Assembly (NCBI GenBank): GCA_031396695.1
Contig: JANNLG010000016.1
Location: 54,494-118,493 of the forward strand
Direction: 5' to 3'
Source: Deltaproteobacteria bacterium
Lineage (GTDB): Bacteria > Myxococcota_A > UBA9160 > SZUA-336
DNA length: 64,000 bases
Shown here: one piece after another, positions 13,797-59,231 of the stretch
Layout of the letters: every line of letters begins with the position of its first letter
How positions within the stretch are numbered: position 1 is the stretch's first letter
Program-made: the position numbers and the translations under genes
The notes under the pieces: model-generated
Databases searched by the model: none
Seen by the model: only the letters and a program-made list of their open reading frames with translations
What the model was told of the DNA's origin: nothing

Positions 13797-14615
13797 TCAG
13801 GCTTTGAAGCGCTCGGCGGCTTCGTAGCGGGCTTCGAGCCCGACCAGTGCCGTGAATTCGTCGAAGCCCAGCTTGCTGCGCGTCTCGTCGGGCGCGACGC
13901 CCGTCTTCAAAAGCTCCGCGAACGCGCGCTCGAGCGCGCGCGACGCCGACAGCAGCCCGGTGAGCGGATAGACCACGTACTCGAAGCCGAGCTCGGCCAG
14001 CTCCGAGGCGCCGAGGATCGGCGTCTTGCCGCCCTCGACCATGTTCGCCATCAGCGGACCCGGAACCTCGCGACCGATGCGCACGAGCTCCTCGCGCGAC
14101 AGCGGCGCCTCGACGAAGATCCAATCCGCGCCCGCCTCGCGGTACAGGCGCCCGCGCCGGATCGCTTCGTCGAGTCCGAGCGGAGCGCGCGCGTCGGTGC
14201 GACCCAAGATCGTGAACGAGGCGCTGCCGCGCGCCTCGACCGCGGCGCGGATCTTCTGCACGTGCTCCTCGGCGGGAATCACTTCCTTGCCGCGCATGTG
14301 CCCGCAGCGCTTGGGCCAGACCTGGTCTTCGAGCAGCATCCCCGCGGCTCCGATCGCGATCAGCTCGCGCACCACGCGCTGCACGTTCAGCGGTCCGCCG
14401 TGGCCCGTGTCGCCGTCGACGATCACCGGAACGCGCACGGCGCGCACGATGTTTCGCGCGGTCGCGAGCATTTCCGTCTGCGTGAGCAGGCCGAAGTCCG
14501 GCTCGCCGAGCTGCGTGCCGGCGACGGCGAAGCCCGACACGAACAAGAGCTCGAAGCCGGCGCGCTCCGCGAGCTTCGCCGAGAGCGCGTCCCATACACC
14601 GACCGAGAGCGTCAC
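13797..14615 (-). CDS. Isocitrate lyase/PEP mutase family protein (PrpB/methylisocitrate-lyase-like)
   Basis: C-terminal ~270 aa of the 13797..15734 ORF: VPVIVDGDTGHGGPLNV, LEDQVWPKRCGHMRGK, ILGRTDA. Start taken as the GTG overlapping the upstream TGA (GTGA); it could lie a few codons upstream. Confidence 0.6.
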   Translation of the reverse strand: MTLSVGVWDALSAKLAERAGFELLFVSGFAVAGTQLGEPDFGLLTQTEMLATARNIVRAVRVPVIVDGDTGHGGPLNVQRVVRELIAIGAAGMLLEDQVWPKRCGHMRGKEVIPAEEHVQKIRAAVEARGSASFTILGRTDARAPLGLDEAIRRGRLYREAGADWIFVEAPLSREELVRIGREVPGPLMANMVEGGKTPILGASELAELGFEYVVYPLTGLLSASRALERAFAELLKTGVAPDETRSKLGFDEFTALVGLEARYEAAERFKA

Positions 14616-16012: not shown

Positions 16013-16678
16013 CTACTTGCGCAGGATCGTCGGCGCGATCTCGCGCGGGTGTTCGAGCAGGAATTCCGCGCCCGCCGCAATCAGCTCCTCGCGCCCGCGC
16101 AGCCCCCAGCCGCAGCCGATCGTGCGCGCGCCGGCCGCGAGGCCTGTTTCTACGTCGATCGCGCTGTCGCCGACCATCCAGACATCGGCATCTCGGCTGC
16201 CGAGCCGCTCGAGCACGTGCACGAGCACGGCCGGGTCGGGCTTGCGGATCGAGAGCGTGTCGCCGCCCAGCACCGCGCCGAACACCGACTTCAGCCCGAG
16301 GCCGTCGATGATCCGATGCAGGAAGCGCGCGGGCTTGTTCGAAAGCACAGCCAGCGTTTCGCCCGAAAGCGCTTCCAGGCATTGCCCCATGCCCGGGTAT
16401 AGATCGGTGGTGTCGAGACAGCAGCGGTCGTAGTGCGAGCGAAAACGCTCGTAGTGCGACTCGAGTCGCTCGGGCGCGCGCTCTTGCTCGGGCAGCGCGT
16501 TCGCGAGCAGCTTGAGCGCGCCGTCTCCGATCCAGGCTTTCACCTGGGGTCCCTCGACCGGCGCGAGACCCGCGTCTGCGAGCGTGCGATTGAGCGCCGC
16601 CGCAAGATCGCGCCAGGTGTCGGCGAGCGTGCCGTCGAAGTCGAAGATCACGACGCGGCCGGACCGGGAATGCCCCAT
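16013..16678 (-). CDS. HAD family hydrolase (phosphoglycolate phosphatase-like)
   Basis: VVIFDFDGTLADT motif I within the 16013..17113 ORF. Start ATG at 16678 (MGHSRSGRVVIFDFDG). Confidence 0.65.
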   Translation of the reverse strand: MGHSRSGRVVIFDFDGTLADTWRDLAAALNRTLADAGLAPVEGPQVKAWIGDGALKLLANALPEQERAPERLESHYERFRSHYDRCCLDTTDLYPGMGQCLEALSGETLAVLSNKPARFLHRIIDGLGLKSVFGAVLGGDTLSIRKPDPAVLVHVLERLGSRDADVWMVGDSAIDVETGLAAGARTIGCGWGLRGREELIAAGAEFLLEHPREIAPTILRK

Positions 16679-20584: not shown

Positions 20585-20660
20585 TCCCCGATAGCTCAGT
20601 TGGTAGAGCGGGTGGCTGTTAACCACTAGGTCGGCGGTTCAAGTCCGTCTCGGGGAGCCA
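20585..20660 (+). tRNA. tRNA-Asn (anticodon GTT)
   Basis: 76 nt with CCA: 7-bp acceptor stem TCCCCGA/TCGGGGA, D-arm GCTCAGTTGGTAGAGC, anticodon loop CTGTTAA (GTT), T-arm GGTTCAAGTCC. Closely resembles canonical bacterial tRNA-Asn. Confidence 0.85.
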
Positions 20661-29235: not shown

Positions 29236-29709
29236 ATGCAGCTTCTCGCGCAAGAAGAGTATGGGTTGCGCTGCCTGATCCAGGTGGCCCGGCAGCGAGG
29301 CCCTGACCCGCTCACGATCCCCGAGATCGCCGAGCGCGAGGGGATTTCGCCCGAATACGCCGCCAAGCTGATGCGCGCGCTGCGTCAGACCGAGTTCGTG
29401 CTCAGCACGCGCGGCGCCGGGGGTGGCTATCGGCTCGCGCGCCCGGCCGGCGAGATCACCGCCTGGCAGGTGATCCAGGCGCTGGGCGGCTCGCTCTTTC
29501 CGGCCGAGTTCTGCGAGACGCATCCCGGCCAGCTGCGCGACTGCGTCCACTCGACCGGCTGCTCGCTGCGCGGACTCTGGAGCTCGGTCGAGAGCGCGAT
29601 CCGCAACGTGCTCGAGGGCGTGACGCTCGCCGACCTCGCACGCGACGACCGGATCCTGTTCGGGATCGACGGGCCGCCGCTCGAGCCCAAAGCGCAGGCG
29701 CCGCGATGA
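29236..29709 (+). CDS. Rrf2 family transcriptional regulator (IscR/SufR-like)
   Basis: N-terminal wHTH ([24 protein letters not shown]) and C-terminal Cys cluster (C..C..C: [18 protein letters not shown]) for Fe-S sensing. Confidence 0.8.
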
Positions 29710-31154
29710 GCAGCAATCCCGAGATCGCCGCGCTCACCAATCGCGAGTACGAGGCGGGCTTCACCACCGACGTCGAGTCCGAGACCGTCGCGCCCGGGCT
29801 CGACGAGAACGTGATCCGGCGCATCTCCGAGAAGAAGGGCGAGCCGCAGTGGCTGCTCGACTGGCGCTTGCGCGCGTACGCGCGCTGGCTCGAGATGCGC
29901 GAAGAAGACGCGCGCTGGGCGAAGGTCACGTTCCCGAAGATCGACTACCAGGCGATCAGCTACTACTCCGCGCCCAAACCGCGTAAGAAGCTCGGCAGCA
30001 TGGACGAGGTCGACCCGGAGATCCGGGCGACGTTCGAGAAGCTCGGCATCCCGCTCAGCGAGCAGAAGATGCTCTCGGGCGTCGCGGTCGACGCGGTCTT
30101 CGACTCGGTCTCGGTCGCCACCACGTTCCGCGCCAAGCTCGCCGAGCTCGGCATCATCTTCTGCTCGTTTTCGGACGCAGTGAAGAGTCACCCGGAGCTG
30201 GTGCGGAAATATCTCGGATCGGTCGTGCCCTACTCCGACAACTACTTCGCGACGCTGAACTCGGCCGTGTTCACCGATGGCTCCTTCGTGTACATCCCGC
30301 CGGGCGTGCGCTGCCCGATGGAGCTCTCGACCTATTTCAGAATCAACGAAGCGAAGACCGGCCAGTTCGAGCGCACGCTGATCGTCGCCGACGAGGGCGC
30401 GTACGTGTCGTATCTCGAGGGTTGCACCGCGCCGATGCGCGACGAGAACCAGCTGCACGCCGCGGTGGTCGAACTGGTCGCGCTCGAGCGCGCGACCATC
30501 AAGTACTCGACCGTGCAGAATTGGTACCCGGGCGACAAGGAAGGCCGCGGCGGCATCTTCAACTTCGTGACCAAGCGCGGCGCGTGCCGCGGGAAGCGTT
30601 CGAAGATCAGCTGGACGCAGGTGGAGACCGGCTCTGCGATCACCTGGAAGTACCCGAGCTGCATCCTGCAGGGCGACGAATCGGTGGGCGAGTTCTACTC
30701 GGTCGCGGTGACCAATCACTATCAGCAGGCCGACACCGGCACGAAGATGCTGCACATCGGCAAGAACACGCGCAGCACGATCGTCTCGAAGGGCATCTCG
30801 TGCGGACACGGCCAGCAGACCTACCGCGGCCTGGTCGAGATCCACCAGAAGGCGACCGGCGCGCGCAATCACTCGCAGTGCGACTCGCTCTTGATCGGCG
30901 ACAAGTGCGGCGCGCACACCTTTCCCTATCTGGATGTTCGCAACGCGAGCGCGCAGGTGGAGCACGAGGCCACCACCAGCAAGATCAGCGACGACCAGCT
31001 GTTCTACTGCCAGCAGCGAGGGCTCGGCACCGAGGACGCCGTTTCGATGATCGTGAACGGCTTCTGCAAGGAGGTCTTCCGCGAGCTGCCGATGGAGTTC
31101 GCGGTCGAGGCCTCCAAACTTCTGTCCGTGACGCTCGAAGGCGCGGTCGGTTAG
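29706..31154 (+). CDS. sufB: Fe-S cluster assembly protein SufB
   Basis: 482 aa, strong SufB conservation throughout (e.g. ...[18 protein letters not shown]...); ATGA overlap with rrf2. Confidence 0.9.
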
Positions 31155-40920: not shown

Positions 40921-41138
40921 CCACCGGCTAGCTCTCGATGGTGAGCCCCCTCCCCCCAGTGCCGCGGCACGTCGAGTGCCCGCGCGCCGGCCTACATGGC
41001 GGCGCGACGGGAGACTTGCGTTCGCGCACCGGGAACGGGCGCTCACCGGACCGCGACCATGCGGTTCGCACGTTGTGCCTCAACGAACCGGCTGCGACGG
41101 GAAAGCCCCGCCGCAGCCGGTTCCGCGAGGCGCTGGTG

Positions 41139-44100
41139 ATGCTCGCGCTCACCGTGCTTCTGTTTCCGTTCAGCGCACGCGCGCAGACACCCGCGGGCAC
41201 GCCGATCCCGAACACGGGCTACGCGACCTACGACATCGGCGCCACCACCGGAATCGTCCGGCCGTCGAACACGCTGGTCATCACGACCGCCGCGTTCGGA
41301 ACCAGTTCGAGCCTGGAGTTCATGCGCTATGCGCCCGGCGCTCCCGGCTCGATCACCTACGCCGTCTCGCCCACGCAGTGCTTCACGGGCGGATCGTTCA
41401 GCGCCCTGCCCGCGCCCACCGCGTACGGCGGCGGCGTGATCAACCTGGCCAACGTCGAGCTCGAGCTCACGTCGAGCTACCACCCGGGTGAGCCGGTCTT
41501 CGTGCGGCTGGTCGACGCGGATCAGAACCTGAATCCCGCGCTCGCCGAATCGATCCTGGTCACGCTCGCGACACCGAGCGTCGCGGACGTCGAGCAGCTG
41601 CAGCTCTTCGAGACTGGCGTGAACACGGGCATCTTCGTCGGCTACGTGCCCACGGCGGCGCCACCGGCGCCGGCGAACGACTGCGTGCTCGCCGCTCCGT
41701 CGGGTCAGACCGTCACCGGCAGCTACACCGATGCGAGTAACGCCGCGGACACCGATACCGACAGCGCGCTGATCGACCCCGAGAGCCGGGTCTTCGACAG
41801 CACGAACGGCTCGCCGGTCGACGGCGCGACCGTGACCCTGATCGACGACGCCACCGGACTGCCCGCTGCGGGCATCCTCGGCGACGACGGTCTCTCCGCC
41901 TTCCCCGCCACGCTCACCAGCGGCGGCTCGGTCACCGATGGCGGCGGGCAGATCTACAACTTCGGCCCGGGCGGCTACCGCTACCCGGTCGTTCCCGCGG
42001 GCAGCTATCGACTGCAGGTGACGCCGCCCGCCGCGTACACGTTCCCGAGCGGTGTGGCCGACGCCACGCTGCAGACCTTGCCCGGCGCACCGTTCGCGCT
42101 CGCGCTCGGCTCGCGCGGCGAAGTCTTCGCCGTGCCGGTCGGTCCGACCTTCCAGCTCGATCTGCCGGTCGACACCGCGTCGGGCTTCGGCTTCATCTCG
42201 ATCGACGCCAGCCGCGACGTGGTCTCGCTCGGCGAGCACTTCCAGTTCGACGTGCGCGTCGAAAACCCGGGCGTGCTCGGAGCGCCGCTCGGCGTCGACG
42301 TGACCGTCGTATTGCCGCTCGGCATCCGCTTCCTGCCCGGCAGCGTGCGCATCGACGACGGCAAGCAGCCCGATCCGGTGATCTCGCCGGACGGCCGCAC
42401 CCTGACCTGGACGCTACCCGCGAGCGCGCTCCCCGTCGTGACACACATCCGGTTCACCGTGAAGGTCGGGCCGAGCGCCGAGATCGGCCTCACGCGCACC
42501 ACCGCGCGCGCGCAGGCGCTGGGCGGAACGAGCACCGAGGACGCCGTCGCCACGGTGCGGGTCGTCGAGGACCTGGGCGCGAACAACTCCTACATCCTCG
42601 GCCGCGTTTCCGAGGGCGCCTGCGACACCGACGACTTCGGCGGCAAGGGCGTTTCGGGCGTGCGGGTGTACCTCGAGGACGGCTCGTTCTCGATCAGCGA
42701 CTCGAACGGCTACTACCACTTCGCCGGCGTCGTTCCCGGCGCGCACGTGGTGCAGATGGACGTGCAGAGCCTGCCCGGCTTCTACGAGCCGCTGCCGTGC
42801 GCGAAGGACGAAGGCCAGGCCTTCGCCGGCCGGCCGTTCTCGCAGTTCGTCGAGATGCAGGGCGGAACGATGTGGCGCAGCGACTTCCGTGTGCAGATGC
42901 GCGCGCGCGCGCAGGGCGGCATCAGCCAGCGGCTCGAGAGCCAGCTCGTCGGCGACACCATCCACTATCAGCTCGCGCTGCGCGGCAACGGCGTGGCCGT
43001 GCGCAATGCGCGTGCGATGGTGATGCTGCCCGAGGGCGTCCAGTTCGTGCCCGGCAGCACGCGCGACGCGGGCGCGCCGATGGCGGATCCCGAGTTCAAG
43101 GACGGCGTGCTCGTCTACCGGCTCGGCGAACACACCGAAGACAACTGGACGCTGGATCTCACGTTCGATGCGAAGCCCACGGGCCCGAGCGAGCGCCAGC
43201 TCGAGACGTCGTCCGTGGTGATGTTCGAGACGCCGGTCGAGAAGATCGGCAGGACGCCCGTCGCGAAGACGTTCCTTTCCGGCGAGTCGAGCTCGGGCAG
43301 CGGCATCCAGGTGGTCGAGACGCTCGGCCTGCGGCCGGGTGAGGATTGGAACTCGGTCACGACGCCCGCACCCGACGTCACGCCCGTGAAGCCCAGGGTG
43401 TTCAACAAGGCCTGGCTCGAGCAGGCGCAGCCGGGCTTTGCGTGGCTGTCGCCCGAGCCGGGCTTCGCCGCCGCGATCGCGAGCGTGAACATCGCCATTC
43501 AGCACGCGCCCGGCACCACACTCGAGCTGACGCAAAACGGCGTCGCGGTGCCCAAGTTCAACTTCGAGGGCGAGTTCTCCAACAACGCCAAGACCGTCTC
43601 GCTGTCGCGCTGGCGCGGCGTGGATCTGGTCGACGGCGAGAACGCCTTCGTGGTGCGCGCGCTCGACGCGCAGGGCAACGAAGTCGAGCGCTTCGAGCGC
43701 GGGCTTCACTTCGCCGGTCCGCCGTTCCGTGCCGAGCTCGTGCCCGAGCTCTCCAAGCTGGTGGCCGATGGCACCACGCCGCCGGTGATCGCCGTGCGCT
43801 TCACCGACGAGGACGACAAGCCCGCGCGCGAAGGACAGGTCGGCACGTTCCAGGTCGAGGCACCGTACCGCCCGAACCTCGAGCCCGCGCTGCGCGAGCT
43901 GAAGCGTCAGGCGGGCCAGCCGCCCGAGTTGCCGAGCTACGCGATCGGTCAGGACGGCATCGCGCTGATCGAGCTCGCGCCCACCACCACTTCCGGACGC
44001 GTGAACCTCCGCTTCGCGCTGGCCGGCAACCACGAGAAGAAGCTCCACCCCTGGCTCGAGGCGACCGCGCGCGAGTGGGTGCTGGTCGGCCTGACCGGTG

Positions 44101-46640
44101 GCACGCTCATGTACGACTCGGTCTCGGAGCACAGCGAGAGTCTCGTGCCGGGCGGCGTCGAGGACGGCTACGACCTCGACCGCGGCACCACCGTGTTCGC
44201 CAAGGGCCGCGTGAAGGGCTCGTGGCTGCTCACCGCCGCCTACGATTCGCGCCGCGAGTCGTACGAGTCGTCGAACGACATCGACCGCGCCGCGCTCGAA
44301 GGCGGTCTCGATCCGAACCAGTACTACACACTGTACGGTGACGAGACCACGCAGGGTTTCGAAGCGCCGAGCCAGCGCAAGCTGTACGTGAAGCTCGAGC
44401 GCAAGCAGTTCTACGCGCTGTTCGGCGACTTCCAGACCGGCCTCACGGTCACCGAACTGTCGCGCTACAACCGCAGCCTGAACGGTTTCCACACCGAGTA
44501 CGACGGCGACTACGTGAGCTTGAACGCGTTCGGCACCGACACCAGCCAGGCCTTCGTGCAGGACGAGATCCGCGGCGACGGCACGTCGGGCCTGTACCGG
44601 CTCTCGCGCCGCGAGATCGTGCTTAACAGCGAGACGGTATCGATCGAGATCCGCAATCGCTTCCACGGCGAGCAGGTGATCTCGACCGAGAACCAGGTGC
44701 GCTGGGTCGACTACAACATCGACTACAGCTCGGGCACGATCTTCTTCAAGCGGCCGATCCCGAGTACGGGCGAGGGCTTCAACCCCGTCTTCATCGTGGT
44801 GGAGTACGAGGCCGACGACGACTCGGACGAGGAGATCAACGGCGGCGGACGCGCGGCCGTGAAGCTGTTCGACGACAACGTCGAGCTCGGCACCTCGCTG
44901 ATCCACGAGGGCACGGTCGGGCAGACCTCGAGCCTGTACGGCAGCGATCTGCGCATCGACCTCGACGCCTCCACCAGCCTGCGCGGCGAGTACGCGATGA
45001 CGCGCTCGGCGCTGCTCGACTCGGACCTGGATCCAAACGGTGGCGCGTGGCTCGCGGAGCTTTCGCGCCGCGATCGCGATCTCGACTCGCGCGTGTACTG
45101 GCGCGAGCAGCGGCCGGGCTTCGGGCTCGGCCAGCAGAGCGCGAGCGAAACGAACATGCAGCAACTCGGCCTGGACGCGCGCTATCGCCTCTCCGACTCG
45201 CTCTCGCTCTCGGGCGAGGCGTTCCGCCAGGTCGACAGCGCCTCCGACGCGCGCCGCGATCTGTTCCAGGGCCGCGTCGATCACCACGAGGGACCGGTCA
45301 GCGCCTACGGCGGCCTGCGCTTCGCGCACGACGTGTTCTCGGACGGTGAGGACGCGTCGTCGCCGCAGGCGCTCGGCGGGGGCAGCTACACCCTGTACCA
45401 GAACCGACTGAAGCTGCGCGCCGACACGGAAGTGACGCTCTCGGGCGACGAGAGCCTCGACTTCCCGACGCGCTTCCTGGTCGGCGCGGACTTCGAGCTG
45501 CTGCCCGAGCTGACCGTGTTCGGCGAGGAGGAGTTCACGCTCGCCAGCGAGCGCAGCACCGCTTCCACGCGCGTGGGCTTGCGCACGAGCCCGTGGTCCG
45601 GCGGCCAGGCCACCGCGGCGATCGGCCAGCGCAGTCAGCAAGACAGCGCGCGCCTGTTCGGCACGCTCGGCCTGTTGCAGACCTATCAGCTCAGCGACGC
45701 GCTTTCGTTCGACTTCGCGGTCGACAACTCCGTGACACTCTCCGGTGACGACACGGCCGCGACCTCGATCTCGCCGTTCGCGCCCAACCAGCCGGTGAAC
45801 TTCGGCCTGGCCGGCAACGCGCAGGGCGACGACTTCACCTCGGTCTCCGTGGGCACCACCTACGCACAGGAGCTGTGGGCCGCGAACCTGCGCCTGGAGA
45901 CGCGGATCGGCAACGTGCAGGACAAGTGGAGCATCACCGCGGGCGCCTACCGCGAGCTCGCCGAGGGCATCGGCGTGGCCGTGCGCGCCGAATTCTTCGA
46001 CGCCAGCGGCTCGAGCTCCTCGCTCACCACCGGACCGGACGCGACCTCCGGCCCGGTCTACAGCTCCGACGGCAGCTTGCGCCCGAACACCGCCTACGAC
46101 GGCATCGAGTCGCTCGGCAAGCTGCGCGTGTCGGCGGTGTACCGTCCGATCGGCGGCCGCTACACGCTGCTCGAGTCACTCGAGCTGCGCAACGAGCGCC
46201 TGGACGACGCCGTCTTCCAGAGCAGCGCCACGCGCATCGTCAACAACATGAACCTGAACATCAAGCTCGATCGCAAGACGCAGGCTTCGCTGCAGTACGG
46301 CGCGAAGTACCTGCTCGAAGAGATCGACGGCGAGAACCTGCGCGGCTACACCGACGTGACGGGCCTCGAGCTGCGCCGCGCTCTGTGGGGGAGCTGGGAC
46401 GTCGGCGGCCGCGTGGGCATGCGCCACTCCTGGAGCGACGCCAACATCCAGGAGCTGTACGGCGTGTCGCTCGGATACATCCTGATGAAGAACATGTGGG
46501 TGAGCGCGGGCTACAACTGGGAAGGCTACCGAGACTCGGACTTCTCGGAAGGCGAGTGGACGAGCCGCGGGCCGTACATCTCGTTCCGGTACAAGTTCGA
46601 TCAGGAGACGGTGAAGGAGCTGCTCGACTGGGCGGAATAG
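41139..46640 (+). CDS. Giant (1834 aa) surface protein: signal peptide, DUF11-like repeats, carboxypeptidase-regulatory/SdrD-B-like segment, large C-terminal beta-rich domain
   Basis: Start taken at the ATG giving MLALTVLLFPFSARAQTP; upstream in-frame codons from 40938 lack signal character. Contains GTPIPNTGYATYDIGA DUF11 motif and SDSNGYYHFAGVVPG (CarboxypepD_reg-like). The C-terminal ~900 aa is Tyr/Gly/Ser/Asp-rich with alternating hydrophobics, consistent with a beta-barrel or beta-sandwich. Confidence 0.6.
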   Translation: MLALTVLLFPFSARAQTPAGTPIPNTGYATYDIGATTGIVRPSNTLVITTAAFGTSSSLEFMRYAPGAPGSITYAVSPTQCFTGGSFSALPAPTAYGGGVINLANVELELTSSYHPGEPVFVRLVDADQNLNPALAESILVTLATPSVADVEQLQLFETGVNTGIFVGYVPTAAPPAPANDCVLAAPSGQTVTGSYTDASNAADTDTDSALIDPESRVFDSTNGSPVDGATVTLIDDATGLPAAGILGDDGLSAFPATLTSGGSVTDGGGQIYNFGPGGYRYPVVPAGSYRLQVTPPAAYTFPSGVADATLQTLPGAPFALALGSRGEVFAVPVGPTFQLDLPVDTASGFGFISIDASRDVVSLGEHFQFDVRVENPGVLGAPLGVDVTVVLPLGIRFLPGSVRIDDGKQPDPVISPDGRTLTWTLPASALPVVTHIRFTVKVGPSAEIGLTRTTARAQALGGTSTEDAVATVRVVEDLGANNSYILGRVSEGACDTDDFGGKGVSGVRVYLEDGSFSISDSNGYYHFAGVVPGAHVVQMDVQSLPGFYEPLPCAKDEGQAFAGRPFSQFVEMQGGTMWRSDFRVQMRARAQGGISQRLESQLVGDTIHYQLALRGNGVAVRNARAMVMLPEGVQFVPGSTRDAGAPMADPEFKDGVLVYRLGEHTEDNWTLDLTFDAKPTGPSERQLETSSVVMFETPVEKIGRTPVAKTFLSGESSSGSGIQVVETLGLRPGEDWNSVTTPAPDVTPVKPRVFNKAWLEQAQPGFAWLSPEPGFAAAIASVNIAIQHAPGTTLELTQNGVAVPKFNFEGEFSNNAKTVSLSRWRGVDLVDGENAFVVRALDAQGNEVERFERGLHFAGPPFRAELVPELSKLVADGTTPPVIAVRFTDEDDKPAREGQVGTFQVEAPYRPNLEPALRELKRQAGQPPELPSYAIGQDGIALIELAPTTTSGRVNLRFALAGNHEKKLHPWLEATAREWVLVGLTGGTLMYDSVSEHSESLVPGGVEDGYDLDRGTTVFAKGRVKGSWLLTAAYDSRRESYESSNDIDRAALEGGLDPNQYYTLYGDETTQGFEAPSQRKLYVKLERKQFYALFGDFQTGLTVTELSRYNRSLNGFHTEYDGDYVSLNAFGTDTSQAFVQDEIRGDGTSGLYRLSRREIVLNSETVSIEIRNRFHGEQVISTENQVRWVDYNIDYSSGTIFFKRPIPSTGEGFNPVFIVVEYEADDDSDEEINGGGRAAVKLFDDNVELGTSLIHEGTVGQTSSLYGSDLRIDLDASTSLRGEYAMTRSALLDSDLDPNGGAWLAELSRRDRDLDSRVYWREQRPGFGLGQQSASETNMQQLGLDARYRLSDSLSLSGEAFRQVDSASDARRDLFQGRVDHHEGPVSAYGGLRFAHDVFSDGEDASSPQALGGGSYTLYQNRLKLRADTEVTLSGDESLDFPTRFLVGADFELLPELTVFGEEEFTLASERSTASTRVGLRTSPWSGGQATAAIGQRSQQDSARLFGTLGLLQTYQLSDALSFDFAVDNSVTLSGDDTAATSISPFAPNQPVNFGLAGNAQGDDFTSVSVGTTYAQELWAANLRLETRIGNVQDKWSITAGAYRELAEGIGVAVRAEFFDASGSSSSLTTGPDATSGPVYSSDGSLRPNTAYDGIESLGKLRVSAVYRPIGGRYTLLESLELRNERLDDAVFQSSATRIVNNMNLNIKLDRKTQASLQYGAKYLLEEIDGENLRGYTDVTGLELRRALWGSWDVGGRVGMRHSWSDANIQELYGVSLGYILMKNMWVSAGYNWEGYRDSDFSEGEWTSRGPYISFRYKFDQETVKELLDWAE

Positions 46641-46665
46641 CTCGCGTTCGCGAAGCGAACGCGAG

Positions 46666-48018
46666 CTAGTGGCCTCGCAGGCTGGATTGGGAGATCTGGC
46701 GCGCGAGCTTCTTCTCGTCGGTCGGGATGGATACCGCGTTCCACTGCTCGCTGCGTACGGAGTCCTGGTTGCTCCAGTCGATCAGTGCGCTGCCGACGCC
46801 GTCGATCACGCGGACCGGGCGCGTCGGGTCGTCGGCCCAACGGGGATAGTCCTCGCGGTCTTCGCTCCAGCGTCCGACGAAGTAGCCGAGTCCGCCTTGC
46901 GTCGAGCCGTCGCGGTAGGCGGCGTAGTAGAGCGGGAAGAGCGTCTGCAGGTCCAGGTACCAGACGTAGCGGCGTACGCCGTCGCCGAACGAGCCTTGCT
47001 TCAGGCGTCCTTCGATCACGAGCGCACGGCGTAGCTCCCAGCGGTCGTTCGCGAACGACACGCCCGCGGGACCGAAGCCGCGCGACTTGTCCTCGGGGTA
47101 GATCGGCGCGCGCGCGTTGATCGGCGCGAGCACGTCGCGCACGCCGACGAGCCTCCAGTCATGGAGCTGCGGTGACTCGCCGTGCAAGAACAGGCCGTCG
47201 CCGATGCTCGCGTCCACGAGACAGCCGGTGAGCGGCGACTCGGAGTCGGGAGCGGTCGCCCGACTCACCTTGCGCGCGGCTCCGTTCCAGACGAAGAAAT
47301 CCGGCAGCCGGTTGCCACTGTCGTACTGCCGGAAGGCGCACTCTCCGCCGGTGTCCAGGTTGCGCGACGCGCCGCCCGCCGCCCACAGCGCGCGGGTCGA
47401 GGACGGAAAGCGGAAGTCCTCGCTCTCGCGATCCGCGCGCCCAACGAGCGGCACGAAGAAGTAGTCGCCGGTGAATCGCTGCTGCAGATCCTTCGCGAGC
47501 AGGCTGATCCGATACTCGCCGAAGCTGCCGCCCGCCTGGTAGCGCGAGACCCAGTTCCACGCCCAGCGCAGCGCAGCCTGTGGATCGTTCGGATCGATCG
47601 AGTCGGGCGCGAACGGCAGACCCGCGCGGTGGTTCTCGAGCTCGCCCTCGGGCGTGAGCCGCGCCTCGCCGCGGAAACGCTCCGTCACCTTCGCGAAGAA
47701 CTCCGGCGGCGCGTAGTCGCGATAGCACGGGCCGATCTCCAGATGCATCCCGTCGTAGAAGAAGCGCTCGCGGTTGGCCCACAGCTCCTCGGGCACGTAG
47801 CCCTGCAGCGCTTCGGTCTTCTTCTCGTCGAGCACCTCGCCCACGCGAAACGGCGGCGGCACCGCGTCCGCGCCGGGACGCACGAGCGCGCCGGTGGTCT
47901 CACACGACCCCTCCGCGGGAATCGCCCATGGATCGGCCGGCTCGGCCGCGATCGACCCGGCCGAAGAGACGAGCGCGATCCAACACACGAGCGTCGCTCC
48001 GCGCCTGCATTCGAGCAT
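46666..48018 (-). CDS. Secreted hypothetical protein (possibly DUF1329/LolA-like)
   Basis: ATG 48018 with GGAGG RBS; signal peptide TLVCWIALVSSAGSIAA; 450 aa. Family assignment is uncertain. The rest of the 46666..48582 ORF is shadow. Confidence 0.5.
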   Translation of the reverse strand: MLECRRGATLVCWIALVSSAGSIAAEPADPWAIPAEGSCETTGALVRPGADAVPPPFRVGEVLDEKKTEALQGYVPEELWANRERFFYDGMHLEIGPCYRDYAPPEFFAKVTERFRGEARLTPEGELENHRAGLPFAPDSIDPNDPQAALRWAWNWVSRYQAGGSFGEYRISLLAKDLQQRFTGDYFFVPLVGRADRESEDFRFPSSTRALWAAGGASRNLDTGGECAFRQYDSGNRLPDFFVWNGAARKVSRATAPDSESPLTGCLVDASIGDGLFLHGESPQLHDWRLVGVRDVLAPINARAPIYPEDKSRGFGPAGVSFANDRWELRRALVIEGRLKQGSFGDGVRRYVWYLDLQTLFPLYYAAYRDGSTQGGLGYFVGRWSEDREDYPRWADDPTRPVRVIDGVGSALIDWSNQDSVRSEQWNAVSIPTDEKKLARQISQSSLRGH

Positions 48019-54524: not shown

Positions 54525-55292
54525 TCAGAACGCGAACACCCGGAACTCGTGGGTGCCACGGAAGCCGAGCGACGCGAACAGCGCGCGCGCCGCTTGCTCT
54601 CCGTCCTTCAGCTGGATCACCACGCGGCGCTCCGGGCTTTCCAGCGCGCGCACCGCCGCGCTGGCGAGCGCGCGCGCGTAGCCCTGACGGCGGCAGTCCT
54701 CGCGCGTCTCGAGGTGCGCGAGCAGCGCCACGCGCTCGCTCGTGAAGCGCGCCCCCGCGACGGCGGCGAGCTCGCCGTTCGCGTCGCGAATGCCGAAGAA
54801 CGGCCCCAGCTCGAGCTCGAGTCGCGCGAAGCTCGTGCCACAGTAGTGTGTCAGCTCGTCCGCGTCCGTGATCGCCTCCACGCGCGGGTCGCGCGCGGGC
54901 AGCGGCACGCCCGAGTCGAGCCGCGCCATCTGCAGCTCGGTGCGAATCTCGCGCCCGCCCGCGCGCGCGACCTGCGCCCCCAGACGCGCCGGCACCGGGC
55001 ACACGAACGGCCTCGGCATGCGCGGCAAGAGCGCCGCCGCGACCCCGGGCAGCGCGCCGTCGACCGCCACGACGCGGAACGGAAACAGCCCGTCGATGGC
55101 GGCCGCGAGCCCGACCACGCGCTCGCCGTGCAGCGATTCGACCACCTCGACGCGCGCGAGCAGGCCCGGCACCTCGAGCGCCGCGTGCAGCCACAGCCGC
55201 TCGAGCAACGCCGCGCGCGCAAATGCACGCGCCGCCGCGAGCGCGGCCGAGTCCCCTTCCTTCAGGGGCCGATACACGTAGCGACTTGCCAT
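54525..55292 (-). CDS. GNAT family N-acetyltransferase
   Basis: C-terminal acetyl-CoA-binding-like segment (RRQGYARALASAAV...). Weak call. Confidence 0.5.
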   Translation of the reverse strand: MASRYVYRPLKEGDSAALAAARAFARAALLERLWLHAALEVPGLLARVEVVESLHGERVVGLAAAIDGLFPFRVVAVDGALPGVAAALLPRMPRPFVCPVPARLGAQVARAGGREIRTELQMARLDSGVPLPARDPRVEAITDADELTHYCGTSFARLELELGPFFGIRDANGELAAVAGARFTSERVALLAHLETREDCRRQGYARALASAAVRALESPERRVVIQLKDGEQAARALFASLGFRGTHEFRVFAF

Positions 55293-55369
55293 CCGGCGCC
55301 GATCCTAGCCCATCCTGTCTGCAGGACGGTCTTACGAATTGTGATCAACGACCCCCTAGACAACCCGCT

Positions 55370-55690
55370 TCAGGCGGCACCCTTCTGGATCGCGGCCATG
55401 TACGCGCGCAACACCGCATTGATCCTCGACTGGTAGCGGGGACCCTGCGCCTTGAACCAGTTCAGAACGTCCTCGTCGACCCGAAGCGAGATCGGCTGCT
55501 TCGGAGTCGGGTGAACGACCGAGGCGGTCTCGAAGAAGTCAGCCGGAAGATCCGCGAGCTCCGGCGGCGAAGTGCCGCGAATCGTCCGCTCCGTCGACTT
55601 TCGAAGGCGAGCGAGATTCGCTCGTCCGCGGCGCGGCTTTTCACTCTTGCGAGAGGGCTTGGTAGTACGCTTGACGTTCACGACGATCAC
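55370..55690 (-). CDS. brnA: BrnA antitoxin (CopG-like)
   Basis: C-terminal ISLRVDEDVLNWFKAQGPRYQSRINAVLRAYM matches the BrnA family signature. The start may be an internal codon, since this ORF overlaps brnT by ~50 nt. Confidence 0.6.
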   Translation of the reverse strand: MIVVNVKRTTKPSRKSEKPRRGRANLARLRKSTERTIRGTSPPELADLPADFFETASVVHPTPKQPISLRVDEDVLNWFKAQGPRYQSRINAVLRAYMAAIQKGAA

Positions 55691-55946
55691 TCATGCGAGC
55701 CGAGATGATTCTGCGGATCACGACGCCGGCCTCGGCCCGGTCGGTGTAGACGACGGTGAGCGCATTCCCCTGAGCCAGTCCGATCGTAACCACACGCTGC
55801 TCCCCGTAGTCCCGGCGCTGATCCTGGCGCTCGAGCGTGGGGCCCTCGAATACGAGGGTTGCGAACTCGAAGTCGAATCCGCGTGCACGAAGGTTTTCTT
55901 CACTCCTGCGAAGATCCCACGCGAAGCGCACTCGTCCAAAATACAT
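55641..55946 (-). CDS. brnT: BrnT toxin (DUF497 ribonuclease)
   Basis: FAWDLRRSEENLRARGFDFEFATLVFEGP...VVTIGL...ISARMSDRRERQAY matches the BrnT/DUF497 pattern. Start is ATG 55946 or the GTG 5 codons downstream. Confidence 0.6.
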   Translation of the reverse strand: MYFGRVRFAWDLRRSEENLRARGFDFEFATLVFEGPTLERQDQRRDYGEQRVVTIGLAQGNALTVVYTDRAEAGVVIRRIISARMSDRRERQAYYQALSQE

Positions 55947-55961
55947 CTGTATATACAGATG
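55944..55961. repeat. Perfect 18-bp palindrome CATCTGTATATACAGATG overlapping brnT start codon
   Basis: Seen directly. Contains TATATA; candidate TA operator and/or -10 element. Confidence 0.5.
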
Positions 55962-56315
55962 CGCAATCGACGAGTTCGCGGAAGCGGCCACGGGCGGACG
56001 TGCTCCCGCCCCCTCGGCTTCTTGAAGGAAAGAGGCATCCAATTCGCGAATCCGACGGCTTCCTCTGTGGACGGTTCATCGCTCCTGGCTACGCCACGGC
56101 CTCACGATGGCGTCCACGTCGAGATCCGATGGATGCCACCTTCTAGGAATCGGTGGTAGAAAGAACCCCTACAGATCATTGCCTTCATGACATAGGCCAC
56201 TTGCGTTCGACCACGACGTGATCGACTACGACCGGCATCACTACACGTTGACGCGCGCGAGTGGACGGTCATCGAGGCCCGCGGACTCGCGCCGAGACGA
56301 ACGCAGGGGCGGGCC

Positions 56316-56373
56316 GGATGGGGGTCGACGAAGCGGTCGGCTGTGCCGGGCACCGCTGAGGAGACCCCCATCC
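56316..56373. repeat. Nested GC-rich inverted repeat (11-bp perfect arms GGATGGGGGTC/GACCCCCATCC with inner 6-bp IR AGCGGT/ACCGCT)
   Basis: Seen directly in the 470-bp non-coding, lower-GC spacer between the SDR stop (56417) and brnT. Confidence 0.5.
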
Positions 56374-56416
56374 GGCGCGCCCCGGCACTCGCACTCACGA
56401 ACGAATACGCGGTGCG

Positions 56417-57187
56417 TCAGCCCTTCGGCGGCATCCGGATCGCGCCGTCGAGCCGGATCACTTCCCCGTTCAGCATGCCGTTCTCGATGATCGAACGGGC
56501 GAGGTGCGCGTACTCGACCGGGCGGCCGAGGCGGCGCGGGAACGGGATGTTGGCGGCGAGCGCCTGGCGTGCGGGCTCGGGCAGGCCGGCGAGCAGCGGC
56601 GTGTCGAACAGGCCCGGCGCGATCGTCACCACGCGGATGCCGAGCGAGGACAGGTCGCGCGCGACCGGCAGGGTCATGCCGATCACCGCCGCCTTCGAGG
56701 CTGCGTAGGCGATCTGCCCGATCTGTCCGTCGTAGCCGGCGACCGAGGCGGTGTTCACGATCACGCCGCGCTCACCCTCGCTGTCTGCGTCGTTTTTGCT
56801 CATGCGGTGGGCTTCGAAGCGGATCGCGTTGAAGGTGCCGACCACGTTCACCTCGAGCACCTTCATGAACGGCTCGAGCGGGTGTGGTCCTTCCTTCGTC
56901 ACGGTGCGCTGTGCCCAGCCGATGCCCGCGCAGTTCACCGCGATGCGGATTCCGCCGAATTCGGCGACGGCGCGGTCGACCGCGGCCTCGACCTGGTCGG
57001 CCTTGGTCACGTCGCAGGGGCAGAAGATCGTGCCGCGGCCGAGCTCGGCGGCGACTTTCTCGCCGGGCGAGCGCGGCAGGTCGAGGATCGCGACGCGCGC
57101 GCCGGCGGCGATCAGCTCAGCGACCGTCGCGCCTCCGAGTCCGGACGCTCCACCCGTGACGACGGCGCCAGCGCCCTGGATCTGCAT
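56417..57187 (-). CDS. SDR family oxidoreductase (3-hydroxyacyl-CoA dehydrogenase type-2/HSD10-like)
   Basis: ATG 57187 ([20 protein letters not shown]), YAASKAAV catalytic motif. The rest of the 56417..58474 ORF is shadow over speA. Confidence 0.8.
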
Positions 57188-57192
57188 GTTGG

Positions 57193-59136
57193 CTAGGACT
57201 CCTGCTCGAGGTAGGTGTAGCCGCTCATGCCCTGCTCGAAGCGGCGGCGCAGCAGCGCGGATTCTTCCAGCGTGAGCCGGCCCTCGCGCATCGCCGTCTC
57301 GGCGGCCATGCGCACGGACTCGGTCAGCGCGCGGCGGTCGTAGCCCAGGTACTGCACCACCTGCTCGACCGAATCGCCCTGCACCACCTGCTCGACGCTG
57401 TAGCCGCCGTCCTCGTACACCTTCACGTGTACGGCGTCGGTGTCGCCGAACAGGTTGTGCATCTCGCCCAGCGTCTCTTGATAGGCGCCGACCAGGAACA
57501 CGCCCAGGTAGTAGGGGCGGCCGTTCGGCGCGTGCAGCTCGAGCACGTTCTTCACGTCGCGCAGATCGATGAACTCGCTGACCTTGCCGTCGGAGTCGCA
57601 AGTCAGGTCCGCGAAGGTGCCGCGGCGCAGCGGCGCCTCGTCGAGCCGGTGGATCGGGACCACCGGGAAGAGCTGCTTCATGGCCCACGAATCGGGCAGC
57701 GACTGGAACACCGAGAAGTTTCCGTAGTACTTGTCCGCGAGCTGGCGCTCCAAGCGCTGCAGGTCGTCGGGCACGTAGGTCATCTCGCGCACGATGCGCA
57801 GGATCTTCTCGCAGCAGGCCCAGAACAGCTCTTCCATCTTCGCGCGCGTCTGCAGGTCGAGGTAGCCGAGCGCGAACGCGGTGGTCGCCTCTTCCTTCAG
57901 CTGCAGCACGTCGTTGTACGACTCCTGTACGTTGCGGGTCGTGATCGAGCCCCAGACCTCGAACAGCTGCTGGATGACCTTCTGGTCGTCCTCGCCAGGT
58001 TGGGTCGGCGTCGCAGTCGAGCGCACGCCGTCCACGGAGAGCACGTCGAAGATCAGCACCGACGCGTGCGAGACCAGCGCGCGGCCGGCTTCCGTGACGA
58101 TGTCGGGGTGCGGCACGCCCTTCTCGTCGCAGATGTCGCGGATCGCGCTCACCACGTCGTAGGCGTACTCCTGCGTGGTGTAGTTCATCGACGAGTGGAA
58201 GTTGGTTTGCGAGCCGTCGTAGTCGACGCCGAGCCCGCCGCCCACGTCCATGAACTTCACCGGCGCGCCCAGCGTGTGCAGCTCCGTGAAGATGTGCGAC
58301 GCCTCGCGGAACGCGTCCTTGTGCGCGCGGATGGCGGTGACCTGCGAGCCGCTGTGGAAGTGCAGCATCTCGAGGCAGTCGAGCATGTCGTCGTGCCGCA
58401 GCCGGTTCACTACGCCCATCAGCTCTTCGGCCGAGAGTCCGAACTTCGAGCGGTCGCCGGACGACTCCGCCCACTTGCCCGCGCCCTTGCTGGCGAGCCG
58501 CGCGCGCACGCCGATGTGCGGGCGGATGCCGAGCTCGCGGCTGACCTTGATCAGCGTGTCGAGCTCGTTCGGGCGGTCGATCACGATCACGACGTAGCGG
58601 CCGAGCCGCTGAGCCAGCAGCGCCAGCTCCATGTACGCCCTGTCCTTGTAGCCGTTGCAGATGATCAGGGCTTCCGGCGTGTCGAGCGTCGCGAGCCCGA
58701 CCAGGAGCTCCGGCTTGGAGCCGACCTCGAGCCCGAGGTGGTGCGGGCGGCCGAAGTTGACCAACTCCTCCACGACCTGGCGCTGCTGGTTGACCTTGAT
58801 CGGGTACACGCCGCGGTAGCGGCCCTTGTACTCGTACTCAGCTATCGCGCGCGTGAAGCAGCCCGAGATGTGGCGCACGCGACTCGCGAGGATGTCGGAG
58901 AAGCGGATCACGAGCGGCGTGCGCAGGCCTCGCCCGCGCAGCTCTTCGACCAGCGCCGGCAGGTTCACCTGCGCGGTGCCCGGGCCCGCGGGATGGACGA
59001 GCATGTCGCCCGTCGCACTCACCGAAAAATACTCACCACCCCAATAGGGGATGCCGTACAGCTCAGCGGCCTCTCGAACGGTCCAAGCGCGCATCGACCA
59101 CTCCTTGGCAGACAACAGGCGCGGCGCTCGCGCCAA
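57193..59136 (-). CDS. speA: Biosynthetic arginine decarboxylase
   Basis: Conserved along its length against SpeA ([54 protein letters not shown]-terminus). Start may be the downstream ATG at 59094. Confidence 0.85.
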
Positions 59137-59231
59137 AAAAGGCGCGAGTCGCGGCGCATGTTAACGCCACTGGAACTACAGGTCGAGCGATTCGCCCAAA
59201 AACTTTGGGACTTATGGGTCCCGGCGCGCGG

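Follow-up and report, generated by a model that had tools for sequence, protein, structure and literature searches.

A horizontally acquired BrnT/BrnA toxin-antitoxin module in a Myxococcota chromosome, with a conserved candidate operator and a probable GTG start

The brnTA locus described here lies in a 64,000-nucleotide (nt) stretch (the window, to which all positions refer) of contig JANNLG010000016.1, from a Deltaproteobacteria bacterium (Myxococcota_A; UBA9160; SZUA-336; assembly GCA_031396695.1). It is an intact type II BrnT/BrnA toxin-antitoxin (TA) module, a known kind of system, which was horizontally acquired and whose lineage is common in integron cassettes. Alignment with related genomes shows an insertion of about 1.05 kb into a Myxococcota chromosome, in the interval that separates the genes of a short-chain dehydrogenase (SDR) and a GNAT acetyltransferase. 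The explanation that we favor for the locus as a whole, and consider probable, is that the acquired brnTA operon has its own promoter, that a short palindromic core within this promoter is the operator, that brnT starts at a conserved GTG, and, least certainly, that a long hairpin at the other end of the insert serves as a terminator or insulator. The genes and the insert are as follows.

55641..55931, minus strand: brnT toxin gene (PF04365), 96 codons from the conserved GTG; an ATG at 55946 in the same frame would add 5 codons
55370..55690, minus strand: brnA antitoxin gene (PF14384), with a C-terminal ribbon-helix-helix (RHH) domain; overlaps brnT by 41-50 nt
55354..56407, no strand assigned: block inserted relative to the empty SDR/GNAT site; boundaries approximate (about 10-20 nt), taken from the alignment with the empty-site genome L088 and from the flank shared with L087 up to 55353
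56417..57187, minus strand: SDR gene, the native upstream flank (PF00106, E 7e-46; 91-95% identity in L087/L088)
54525..55353, minus strand: GNAT acetyltransferase gene (54525..55292; Pfam GNAT families) with a leader of about 60 nt, the native downstream flank; the leader aligns with L087, L082, and L088

The brnTA module and its insertion at a variable spot

The window proteins score well over the thresholds of both families, and the identification of a BrnT/BrnA pair made in the sequence-only reading of this DNA holds. BrnT covers all of PF04365 (profile positions 1-77 of 77) with an E value of 2e-20 and 73.2 bits against a cut-off of 34.5, while residues 57-98 of BrnA match positions 26-68 of the 68 positions of PF14384 (E 9e-17; 61.7 bits, cut-off 26.1), and both genes are intact. 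BrnT has 553 homologues at E values up to 1e-5, with identities of up to 94% (many between 70 and 94%), mostly called as proteins of 96 amino acids (aa), and every residue that is invariant in a 13-sequence alignment is present in the window copy. The sole solved relative retrieved by sequence is the toxin structure 7vd7 (E 7e-16). For Brucella BrnT, Asp6, Glu7, Lys9, Arg41, and Glu78 are named as conserved functional residues (PMC5086665). Numbered from the GTG and compared with these by position only, window BrnT has W5-D6, a Leu at position 7, and an Arg at position 9, where most homologues have Lys. From its family membership, it is predicted to be a ribonuclease-type toxin that is neutralized by BrnA.

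In BrnA, the RHH segment ISLRVDEDVLNWFKAQGPRYQSRINAVLRAY is at least 80-95% conserved among 50 distinct homologues, and the predicted DNA-reading part of the protein (ISLRVDEDV...) is near-invariant in brnTA loci. Only two starts are available in the brnA frame, GTG 55690 and GTG 55681. The resulting overlap with brnT (41-50 nt, within 55641..55690) is in another frame, is unusually long, and has no obvious Shine-Dalgarno sequence; its length suggests translational coupling of the two genes. With two small, overlapping, co-oriented genes and a conserved promoter footprint, the locus has the makeup of a type II TA operon.

The comparisons draw on several sets. Eighty metagenomic brnTA loci were fetched and their upstream regions aligned, which gave 62-63 distinct sequences: the upstream position matrix is built from 63 distinct loci, and the counts of start codons, stops, and palindromes refer to 62. 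The attC test downstream of brnA was applied to the 57 loci with enough downstream sequence, and homologues of the spacer and the hairpin were searched in 92 related loci. Additionally, a search with the GNAT protein recovered seven Myxococcota metagenome-assembled genomes, while exact-protein look-ups of the 101-aa form of BrnT, of SDR, and of GNAT returned no further contigs.

The insertion is shown directly, because the site is empty in one related genome and taken up by different genes in another. L088 carries SpeA, SDR, and GNAT in this order; SDR and GNAT are separated by only 58 nt (L088:3943-4000), and the two sides of this spacer align to window positions 56460..56408 and 55332..55252. 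L087, the closest genome (89-97% identity of the flanking proteins), carries a different filling of 1.7 kb at this spot (L087:2259-4000), made up of an SRPBCC-type gene and a luciferase-like monooxygenase. On the short contigs L082 and L083 (88% DNA identity), brnTA again stands before GNAT, and SDR is broken off at DLSSxGIRVV and followed by other sequence (L082:34-1271). From the empty-site and relative alignments, the window insert runs from about 56407 to about 55354. The SDR/GNAT spacer (window 55293..56416) is thus a variable spot, which is empty in L088, holds other genes in L087, brnTA in the window, and other sequence plus brnTA in L082.

The composition of the block agrees with a foreign origin. 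Its GC content is 62.4% against 69.9% for the window, the lowest of any 1,075-bp stretch (z = -3.15), and the GC content at third codon positions (GC3) is 0.70 in brnT and 0.78 in brnA against 0.85-0.94 in the neighboring genes, both values lying 2-3 standard deviations (sd) below those of the window's genes. GC content and codon usage had been proposed as the test of horizontal acquisition, and the block is an outlier in GC and GC3; together with the empty site, this upholds the proposal. The accompanying statement that this is the only clearly AT-richer stretch is correct in that no stretch has lower GC, and "only" is slightly overstated, given a second-lowest stretch of 63.4% at 29706..31154. 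The latter is the native, highly conserved sufB and not an island, so that only the brnTA islet, of all the low-GC stretches, looks foreign.

The extent of the mobile part can be read from the other loci. When about 80 further brnTA loci are compared with the window, the homologous DNA goes past the brnA stop codon in none of them, and upstream it ends most often exactly at the 5' edge of the motif GTATATAC, 25 nt before the GTG. These limits indicate a transferable unit of about 600 bp that consists of the promoter and the two genes. The same module, at 81-87% DNA identity, is found in unrelated contexts and in integron arrays.

An exact 11-nt direct repeat that flanks the islet, CCATCCGGCGC (55289..55299 and 56368..56378), was considered as a target-site duplication and rejected, since chance alone should produce one repeat of this kind in 1.4 kb of such composition and its right copy lies in the native GNAT leader that is shared with the empty-site genome. 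One copy lies within an arm of the hairpin described below and the other overlaps the GNAT start codon; neither matches an insertion boundary.

Predicted promoter, candidate operator, and likely start of brnT

Upstream of brnT, the 62-63 distinct loci share one consensus, which reads TTGC, 6 variable positions, GTATATAC, 4 variable positions, G TATnnT, 6 variable positions, and GTG. In the window, its elements and the palindrome around them are placed as follows.

55961..55966, minus strand: predicted -35 hexamer TTGCGC (T 58, T 46, G 46, C 51 of 63 loci), 17 nt from the -10
55949..55956, no strand assigned: GTATATAC, invariant palindromic core and probable BrnA/BrnTA operator site 1, in the promoter spacer (each of the 8 positions in 62-63 of 63)
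55944..55961, no strand assigned: perfect 18-bp palindrome CATCTGTATATACAGATG, the core plus 5-bp arms specific to this copy
55941..55944, minus strand: second GTAT half-site, candidate operator site 2, overlapping the -10 (G 61, T 60, A 60, T 59 of 63)
55938..55943, minus strand: predicted -10 hexamer TATTTT (TATnnT here in all 62 distinct promoters, TATACT being the commonest)
55929..55931, minus strand: GTG, the probable start codon of brnT, at which a leaderless transcript is predicted to begin; separated from the -10 hexamer by 6 nt

The -10 element keeps T1, A2, and T6 and varies at positions 4-5 (TATACT, TATGCT, TATAGT, TATTCT), which is the pattern of sigma-70, and the whole arrangement is predicted to be a sigma-70-type promoter with a 17-bp spacer. 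GTATATAC occurs a single time in the window, and the motif GTATATACNNNNGTAT is found once, on the brnT strand, in 73 of 86 brnT loci. Site 2 often reads GTATAC, and its center is 11 bp, one helical turn, from that of site 1. This geometry is as would be expected for two RHH dimers bound on one face of the helix, and GTATATAC-N4-GTAT is a probable operator for the RHH protein BrnA.

We therefore propose a mechanism of the following kind for the expression of the module. The operon would bring its own promoter, formed by TTGCGC (55966..55961), the 17-bp spacer, TATTTT (55943..55938), 6 nt, and GTG 55931. Most likely, the RHH domain of BrnA binds GTATATAC and GTAT as adjacent dimers, either alone or in a BrnT2-BrnA2 complex, and this binding would block RNA polymerase, giving the negative autoregulation known for BrnTA. 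Because the palindrome lies in the spacer, upstream of the predicted transcript start, it would act as DNA and not as RNA.

In the sequence-only reading, the whole 18-bp palindrome had been put forward as a candidate autoregulatory operator that overlaps the brnT start codon. The palindrome at 55944..55961 is indeed exact, and CATCTGTATATACAGATG is unique in the window even when 3 mismatches are allowed. Its length alone, however, is not evidence, because perfect palindromes of at least 18 bp are common in simulated sequence of 70% GC (93 of 100 Markov simulations). The window contains a second perfect 18-bp palindrome, CGCGCGCTCGAGCGCGCG at 13923..13940, which is at chance level for the composition. 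What is unusual in CATCTGTATATACAGATG is its AT-rich content and, above all, the conservation of its core. The perfect palindrome is no longer than 8 bp in 30 of the homologous loci; it extends to 10 bp in 22, to 12 bp in 6, and to 16 bp in 3, and only the window copy reaches 18 bp. The outer 5-bp arms are peculiar to that copy, and their complementarity elsewhere is no more than base frequencies predict. The operator proposal thus stands for the 8-bp core, which is invariant in 62-63 promoters, but not for the unconserved arms.

The start of brnT also had to be moved. An in-frame ATG is present in the window at 55946..55944, but an ATG occupies this position in only 5 of the 62 homologous loci, and in 17 of them an in-frame stop lies between it and the GTG; the GTG, 15 nt downstream of the ATG, is conserved in 53 loci. 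For these three reasons, GTG 55931 is the likely start, and the claim that the palindrome overlaps the start codon is not supported. The homologue versions of 101 aa all begin with MY, followed by 3 unconstrained residues and then VRF.WD, which suggests a constraint at the level of DNA rather than of protein. The N-terminus produced from the GTG, M-R-F-A-W-D, fits the short N-terminus of 7vd7, with an alignment that begins at 7vd7 residue 3. Only 6 nt separate the -10 from the GTG, and 1 of the 62 loci has a Shine-Dalgarno-like motif; transcription is therefore predicted to start on the GTG or directly beside it, and the brnT mRNA is probably leaderless. The earlier idea of a leaderless-type promoter survives in this form, with another -10 (TATTTT, 55943..55938) and another start (GTG 55931) than those first assigned.

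It remains to weigh the original assignment as a whole, in which brnT starts at ATG 55946, TATATA is the leaderless -10, and the complete palindrome is the operator. It can appeal to an ATG that is in frame and gives a 101-aa product, to the choice of the equivalent start by some gene callers in homologues (101 aa, MY...), and to a palindrome that is perfect over 18 bp. Against this stand the rarity of the ATG, the intervening stops, the lack of constraint on the 3 residues between MY and VRF, and the variable outer arms. The promoter evidence points the same way: nothing is conserved 17 nt upstream of TATATA, and the conserved TTGC, at a distance of only 5 nt from it, pairs at 17 nt with the downstream TATnnT. 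Moreover, the A of the ATG is 4 nt past TATATA, too near for a transcription start. We consider this assignment very unlikely. The only model on record for brnT is a gene-caller product of 133 aa (P0001, TTG start at 56042; 55641..56042), on contig L001, which is 99.92% identical to the window. This call is almost certainly too long, as its first 37 residues are encoded upstream of the predicted promoter and the conserved GTG.

Hairpin, spacer, and possible integron cassette ancestry

Between the promoter and the SDR gene, the insert holds three further features.

56287..56405, minus strand: very stable long hairpin, beginning 12 nt past the SDR stop codon (-82.8 kcal/mol, z = -6.2), part of the insert
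55992..56286, no strand assigned: orphan non-coding spacer of 295 nt, GC about 0.60
55984..55991, minus strand: GTGGCCGC, possible degenerate remnant of a cassette boundary (attC R' core GTTRRRY, then CCGC), at the position where 31 of 62 loci have GTTRRVY

A nested inverted repeat had been noted at 56316..56373, and it is confirmed: the perfect 11-bp arms GGATGGGGGTC / GACCCCCATCC (56316..56326 and 56363..56373), found only there, enclose an inner 6-bp stem. The actual structure is larger, with 40-nt arms of 80% complementarity extending over about 56287..56405, and it is the longest inverted repeat and the most stable 120-nt fold of the window, also after GC correction. Next in stability after GC correction (z = -3.7 to -4.1) come 46606..46725, 16411..16530, 41026..41145, and 59086..59205, none of which has an Rfam match; the last of them overlaps the 5' end of the speA open reading frame (ORF; 57193..59136) and the sequence just upstream. 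No further copies of the hairpin were found in the window or in the 92 related loci. The hairpin was also considered as a repetitive extragenic palindromic (REP) element or miniature inverted-repeat transposable element (MITE), and this was rejected because the arms occur only here, the lone outside match (in L091) lying in a coding region and being due to chance. It is not an attC site either, since the R''/R' cores are absent.

As for its function, the hairpin is GC-rich but has no U-tract, and a consensus scan found 0 intrinsic terminators. We tentatively suggest, with the balance somewhat against it, that the hairpin ends the speA-SDR transcript or stabilizes its 3' end and so serves as a terminator or insulator. 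In the least certain step of the proposed mechanism, it would shield the toxin operon from speA-SDR read-through. In the empty-site genome, SDR and GNAT are near enough for co-transcription.

The claim that about 470 bp here have no supportable ORF is correct; the region measures 470-485 nt, and its mechanical ORFs have no Pfam match. Pfam searches of all mechanical ORFs of the spacer, and of the ORF upstream of brnTA in L082, gave nothing, blastn of the spacer against plasmids gave no match, and blastn and tblastx against the 92 loci gave no credible match. The one tblastx hit, 38 aa long with 45% identity (E 4e-4), is in L033, a long way from the brnT of that locus on its upstream side, and was attributed to GC-rich composition. 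An Rfam scan, which the sequence-only reading had suggested for this region, matched no known RNA family: with Rfam 15, the best scores at the locus were 15-21 bits against thresholds of 48-100, and nothing credible appeared even at E values up to 10. In the whole window, only tRNA-Asn reaches the gathering score; this single tRNA gene, tRNA-Asn (GTT), is at 20585..20660. Folding of the spacer gave no significant structure (z = -0.9 and -2.05), and we treat 55992..56286 as orphan filler.

In many homologous loci, the module sits in an integron cassette. In 33 of 57 loci, a TAAC includes the stop codon of brnA, and the sequence there, mostly GCCTAAC or GGCTAAC, stands where an attC site has its R'' core; about half of these 33 pair strongly with a GTTRRRY 60-170 nt downstream. 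The homologue DNA folds into the R''/R' and L''/L' stems that characterize integron attC sites, and a GTTRRVY marking the cassette boundary is found 52-67 nt upstream of the GTG in 31 of 62 loci. Co-oriented attC arrays accompany several copies, with five sites 0.7-1.1 kb apart in L004 and three each in L008, L015, L060, and L081. Such BrnT/A cassettes have already been reported from integrons and from clusters of attC sites lacking integron integrases (CALINs) (PMC7370490, PMC7923331). These comparisons show that the brnTA lineage circulates largely as integron gene cassettes. Two loci may be described separately. In L004 (351-3940), five attC-like sites (GCAGCTSA...GTTRRVY) surround the brnTA cassette in an integron array or CALIN on a freshwater-sediment-type metagenome contig, and in L052, a metagenomic contig of 2.2 kb, tandem cassettes hold two copies of brnTA (59-639 and 1466-2025), which fits the reports of several BrnT/A cassettes per array.

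The window copy itself lacks these hallmarks. Its brnA ends in GCCTGAA with no GTTRRRY partner, the best duplex downstream (-13.7 kcal/mol) being within the control range, and the 64-kb window contains no CTAAC...GTTRRRY pair and no attC sites. Neither does it lie in an array: the flanks are the SDR/GNAT housekeeping genes, syntenic in relatives, and no integrase gene was seen next to the insert, though no specific intI scan was made. In L082, the closest relative, GTTGGGT stands at the position of GTGGCCGC, and homology between the window and L082 ends there. That the window copy is a decayed ex-cassette seems to us nearly as plausible as its contrary. The direction may also have been the opposite, with a chromosomal module captured later as a cassette.

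Several points weigh against the account that we favor. The promoter, the leaderless start, and the operator all come from phylogenetic footprints; a consensus promoter scan made no call, TTGCGC matching the sigma-70 consensus at 3 of 6 positions and TATTTT at 4 of 6. The -10 (TATTTT) and site 2 (GTATTT rather than GTATAC) of the window are the weakest variants in the family, so that this copy could be poorly expressed or differently regulated. ATG 55946 could serve as an additional start in this genome if some transcript begins further upstream. The cassette ancestry of the window copy relies on an 8-nt degenerate remnant and one close relative. Additionally, the role given to the hairpin is a guess, because it has neither a U-tract nor a homologue.

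Other explanations of the insert and its non-coding part have to be considered as well. The hairpin might belong to the element by which brnTA arrived, as a structured end or a site of recombination (attC-like, IS200/IS605- or MITE-type, or the target of an unknown recombinase), which would explain the repeated hits between SDR and GNAT. The hairpin forms the extreme left end of the insert and is missing from the empty site, related genomes fill this spacer in three different ways, no other fold in the 64 kb comes near the hairpin in stability, and the family otherwise owes its mobility to a recombinase with folded DNA hairpins as its substrates. Yet no R''/R' core sites (RYYYAAC ... GTTRRRY) are found in or near it, neither a second copy nor a partner repeat stands at the right edge, the rest of the window and the 92 loci are likewise free of copies, no recombinase or transposase gene is adjacent, the L087 insert at the same site has no such hairpin, and the 11-nt direct repeat is not at the insertion boundaries. 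This makes a recombination site improbable. Equally improbable, at the far end of speculation, is that the SDR/GNAT spacer is a recurrent site-specific landing pad (three cargoes, one empty site) and the orphan hairpin the footprint of an uncharacterized mechanism that fixes integron-type cassettes outside integrons after their attC sites have been stripped.

Alternatively, the spacer of about 300 nt, the hairpin, or both might be an unannotated small RNA or a decayed gene of the TA module, for example an antisense or type III-like regulator. About 485 gene-free nt are long for this compact genome, and on its plus strand the spacer is slightly more stably folded than its shuffles (z = -2.05). 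However, the Rfam and Pfam searches described above were empty, nothing in related loci beyond the weak L033 hit resembles the spacer, no consensus promoter is present, and other family members, including the closest (L082, L084), do without the spacer, homology ending at the promoter; we regard such an RNA or gene as highly improbable. Still further from the evidence is the view that the low GC merely reflects intergenic and promoter DNA with small genes, brnTA being ancestral at this spot and lost from the relatives. The presence of brnTA beside GNAT in the close relative L082 speaks for it, and this presence does imply that the insertion is not very recent. But GC3 of the coding sequences is itself 2-3 sd low, the module recurs at 81-87% DNA identity in unrelated contexts and integron arrays, homology stops at the edges of the module, and the spot is taken up by other genes in the closest genome (L087) and is a clean spacer of 58 nt in L088. 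An ancestral brnTA is hardly credible in view of these data, and we retain the acquired operon with its own promoter, core operator, and GTG start.

Relation to known systems and significance

RHH antitoxins (RelB/relO, ParD, and CopG-type) generally use operators in which short palindromic or repeated sites follow each other at about one helical turn, overlap the core promoter, and are read by the beta-ribbon of an RHH dimer. The candidate sites of the window would conform to this, being palindromic or repeated, about one turn apart, and overlapping predicted promoter elements; they differ in that the window site would lie in the -35/-10 spacer and over the -10 of a probably leaderless promoter. 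Reading of an operator by RHH dimers is described in PMC11980606. According to two studies, the BrnAT tetramer binds and represses its own promoter, and BrnA carries a C-terminal RHH domain (PMC5086665, PMC11980606, both citing Heaton 2012). The window module shares with BrnT/BrnA (PF04365/PF14384) both Pfam families, the toxin-first order, the C-terminal RHH antitoxin, and the short toxin N-terminus with its W-D motif, and promoter autorepression is expected here, as reported for BrnAT. Its lineage is distant from those systems, however, and is found in Myxococcota and environmental DNA; for this lineage, we infer the GTATATAC-N4-GTAT operator, the leaderless GTG, and the 41- to 50-nt overlap.

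Leaderless TA transcripts are known from another phylum. In Mycobacterium tuberculosis, TA operons mostly lack a leader, are enriched among the leaderless transcripts, and can start with GTG (Cortes et al. 2013, PMC3898074). The predicted brnT transcript resembles these in having a -10 placed 6-7 nt before the start, no Shine-Dalgarno sequence, and an accepted GTG; it differs in phylum (Myxococcota and mixed environmental hosts). The homologues likewise agree with the TA cassettes of integrons and CALINs (PMC7370490; PMC7923331) in their flanking attC sites, the stop codon within R'' (GCCTAAC), the GTTRRRY boundary, the co-oriented arrays, and a promoter of their own, whereas the window copy stands alone between housekeeping genes, with no attC and no neighboring cassettes, and keeps at most the 8-nt degenerate remnant. 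The hairpin, for its part, is similar to intrinsic terminators as a GC-rich stem-loop just past a stop codon on the strand of the gene, and unlike them in the missing U-tract and in the stem, which is branched internally and, at about 35-40 bp, far exceeds the usual length.

Nothing in the locus is unexpected for a type II TA system. What the comparisons add is a corrected start, a sharply defined candidate operator and promoter that recur in dozens of copies, and direct evidence of insertion at a variable spot. For annotation, the brnT start should be corrected to GTG 55931, in place of both the 133-aa TTG model and the ATG, and the block should be marked as foreign DNA. About 60 independent copies delimit a compact unit of expression, about 600 bp long, which does not depend on the host context and comprises the promoter with its invariant GTATATAC-N4-GTAT site, the predicted leaderless GTG start, and two overlapping genes. 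The unit offers a precise candidate for the BrnA operator, and it may explain how a TA cassette is expressed wherever it has landed, inside or outside an integron.

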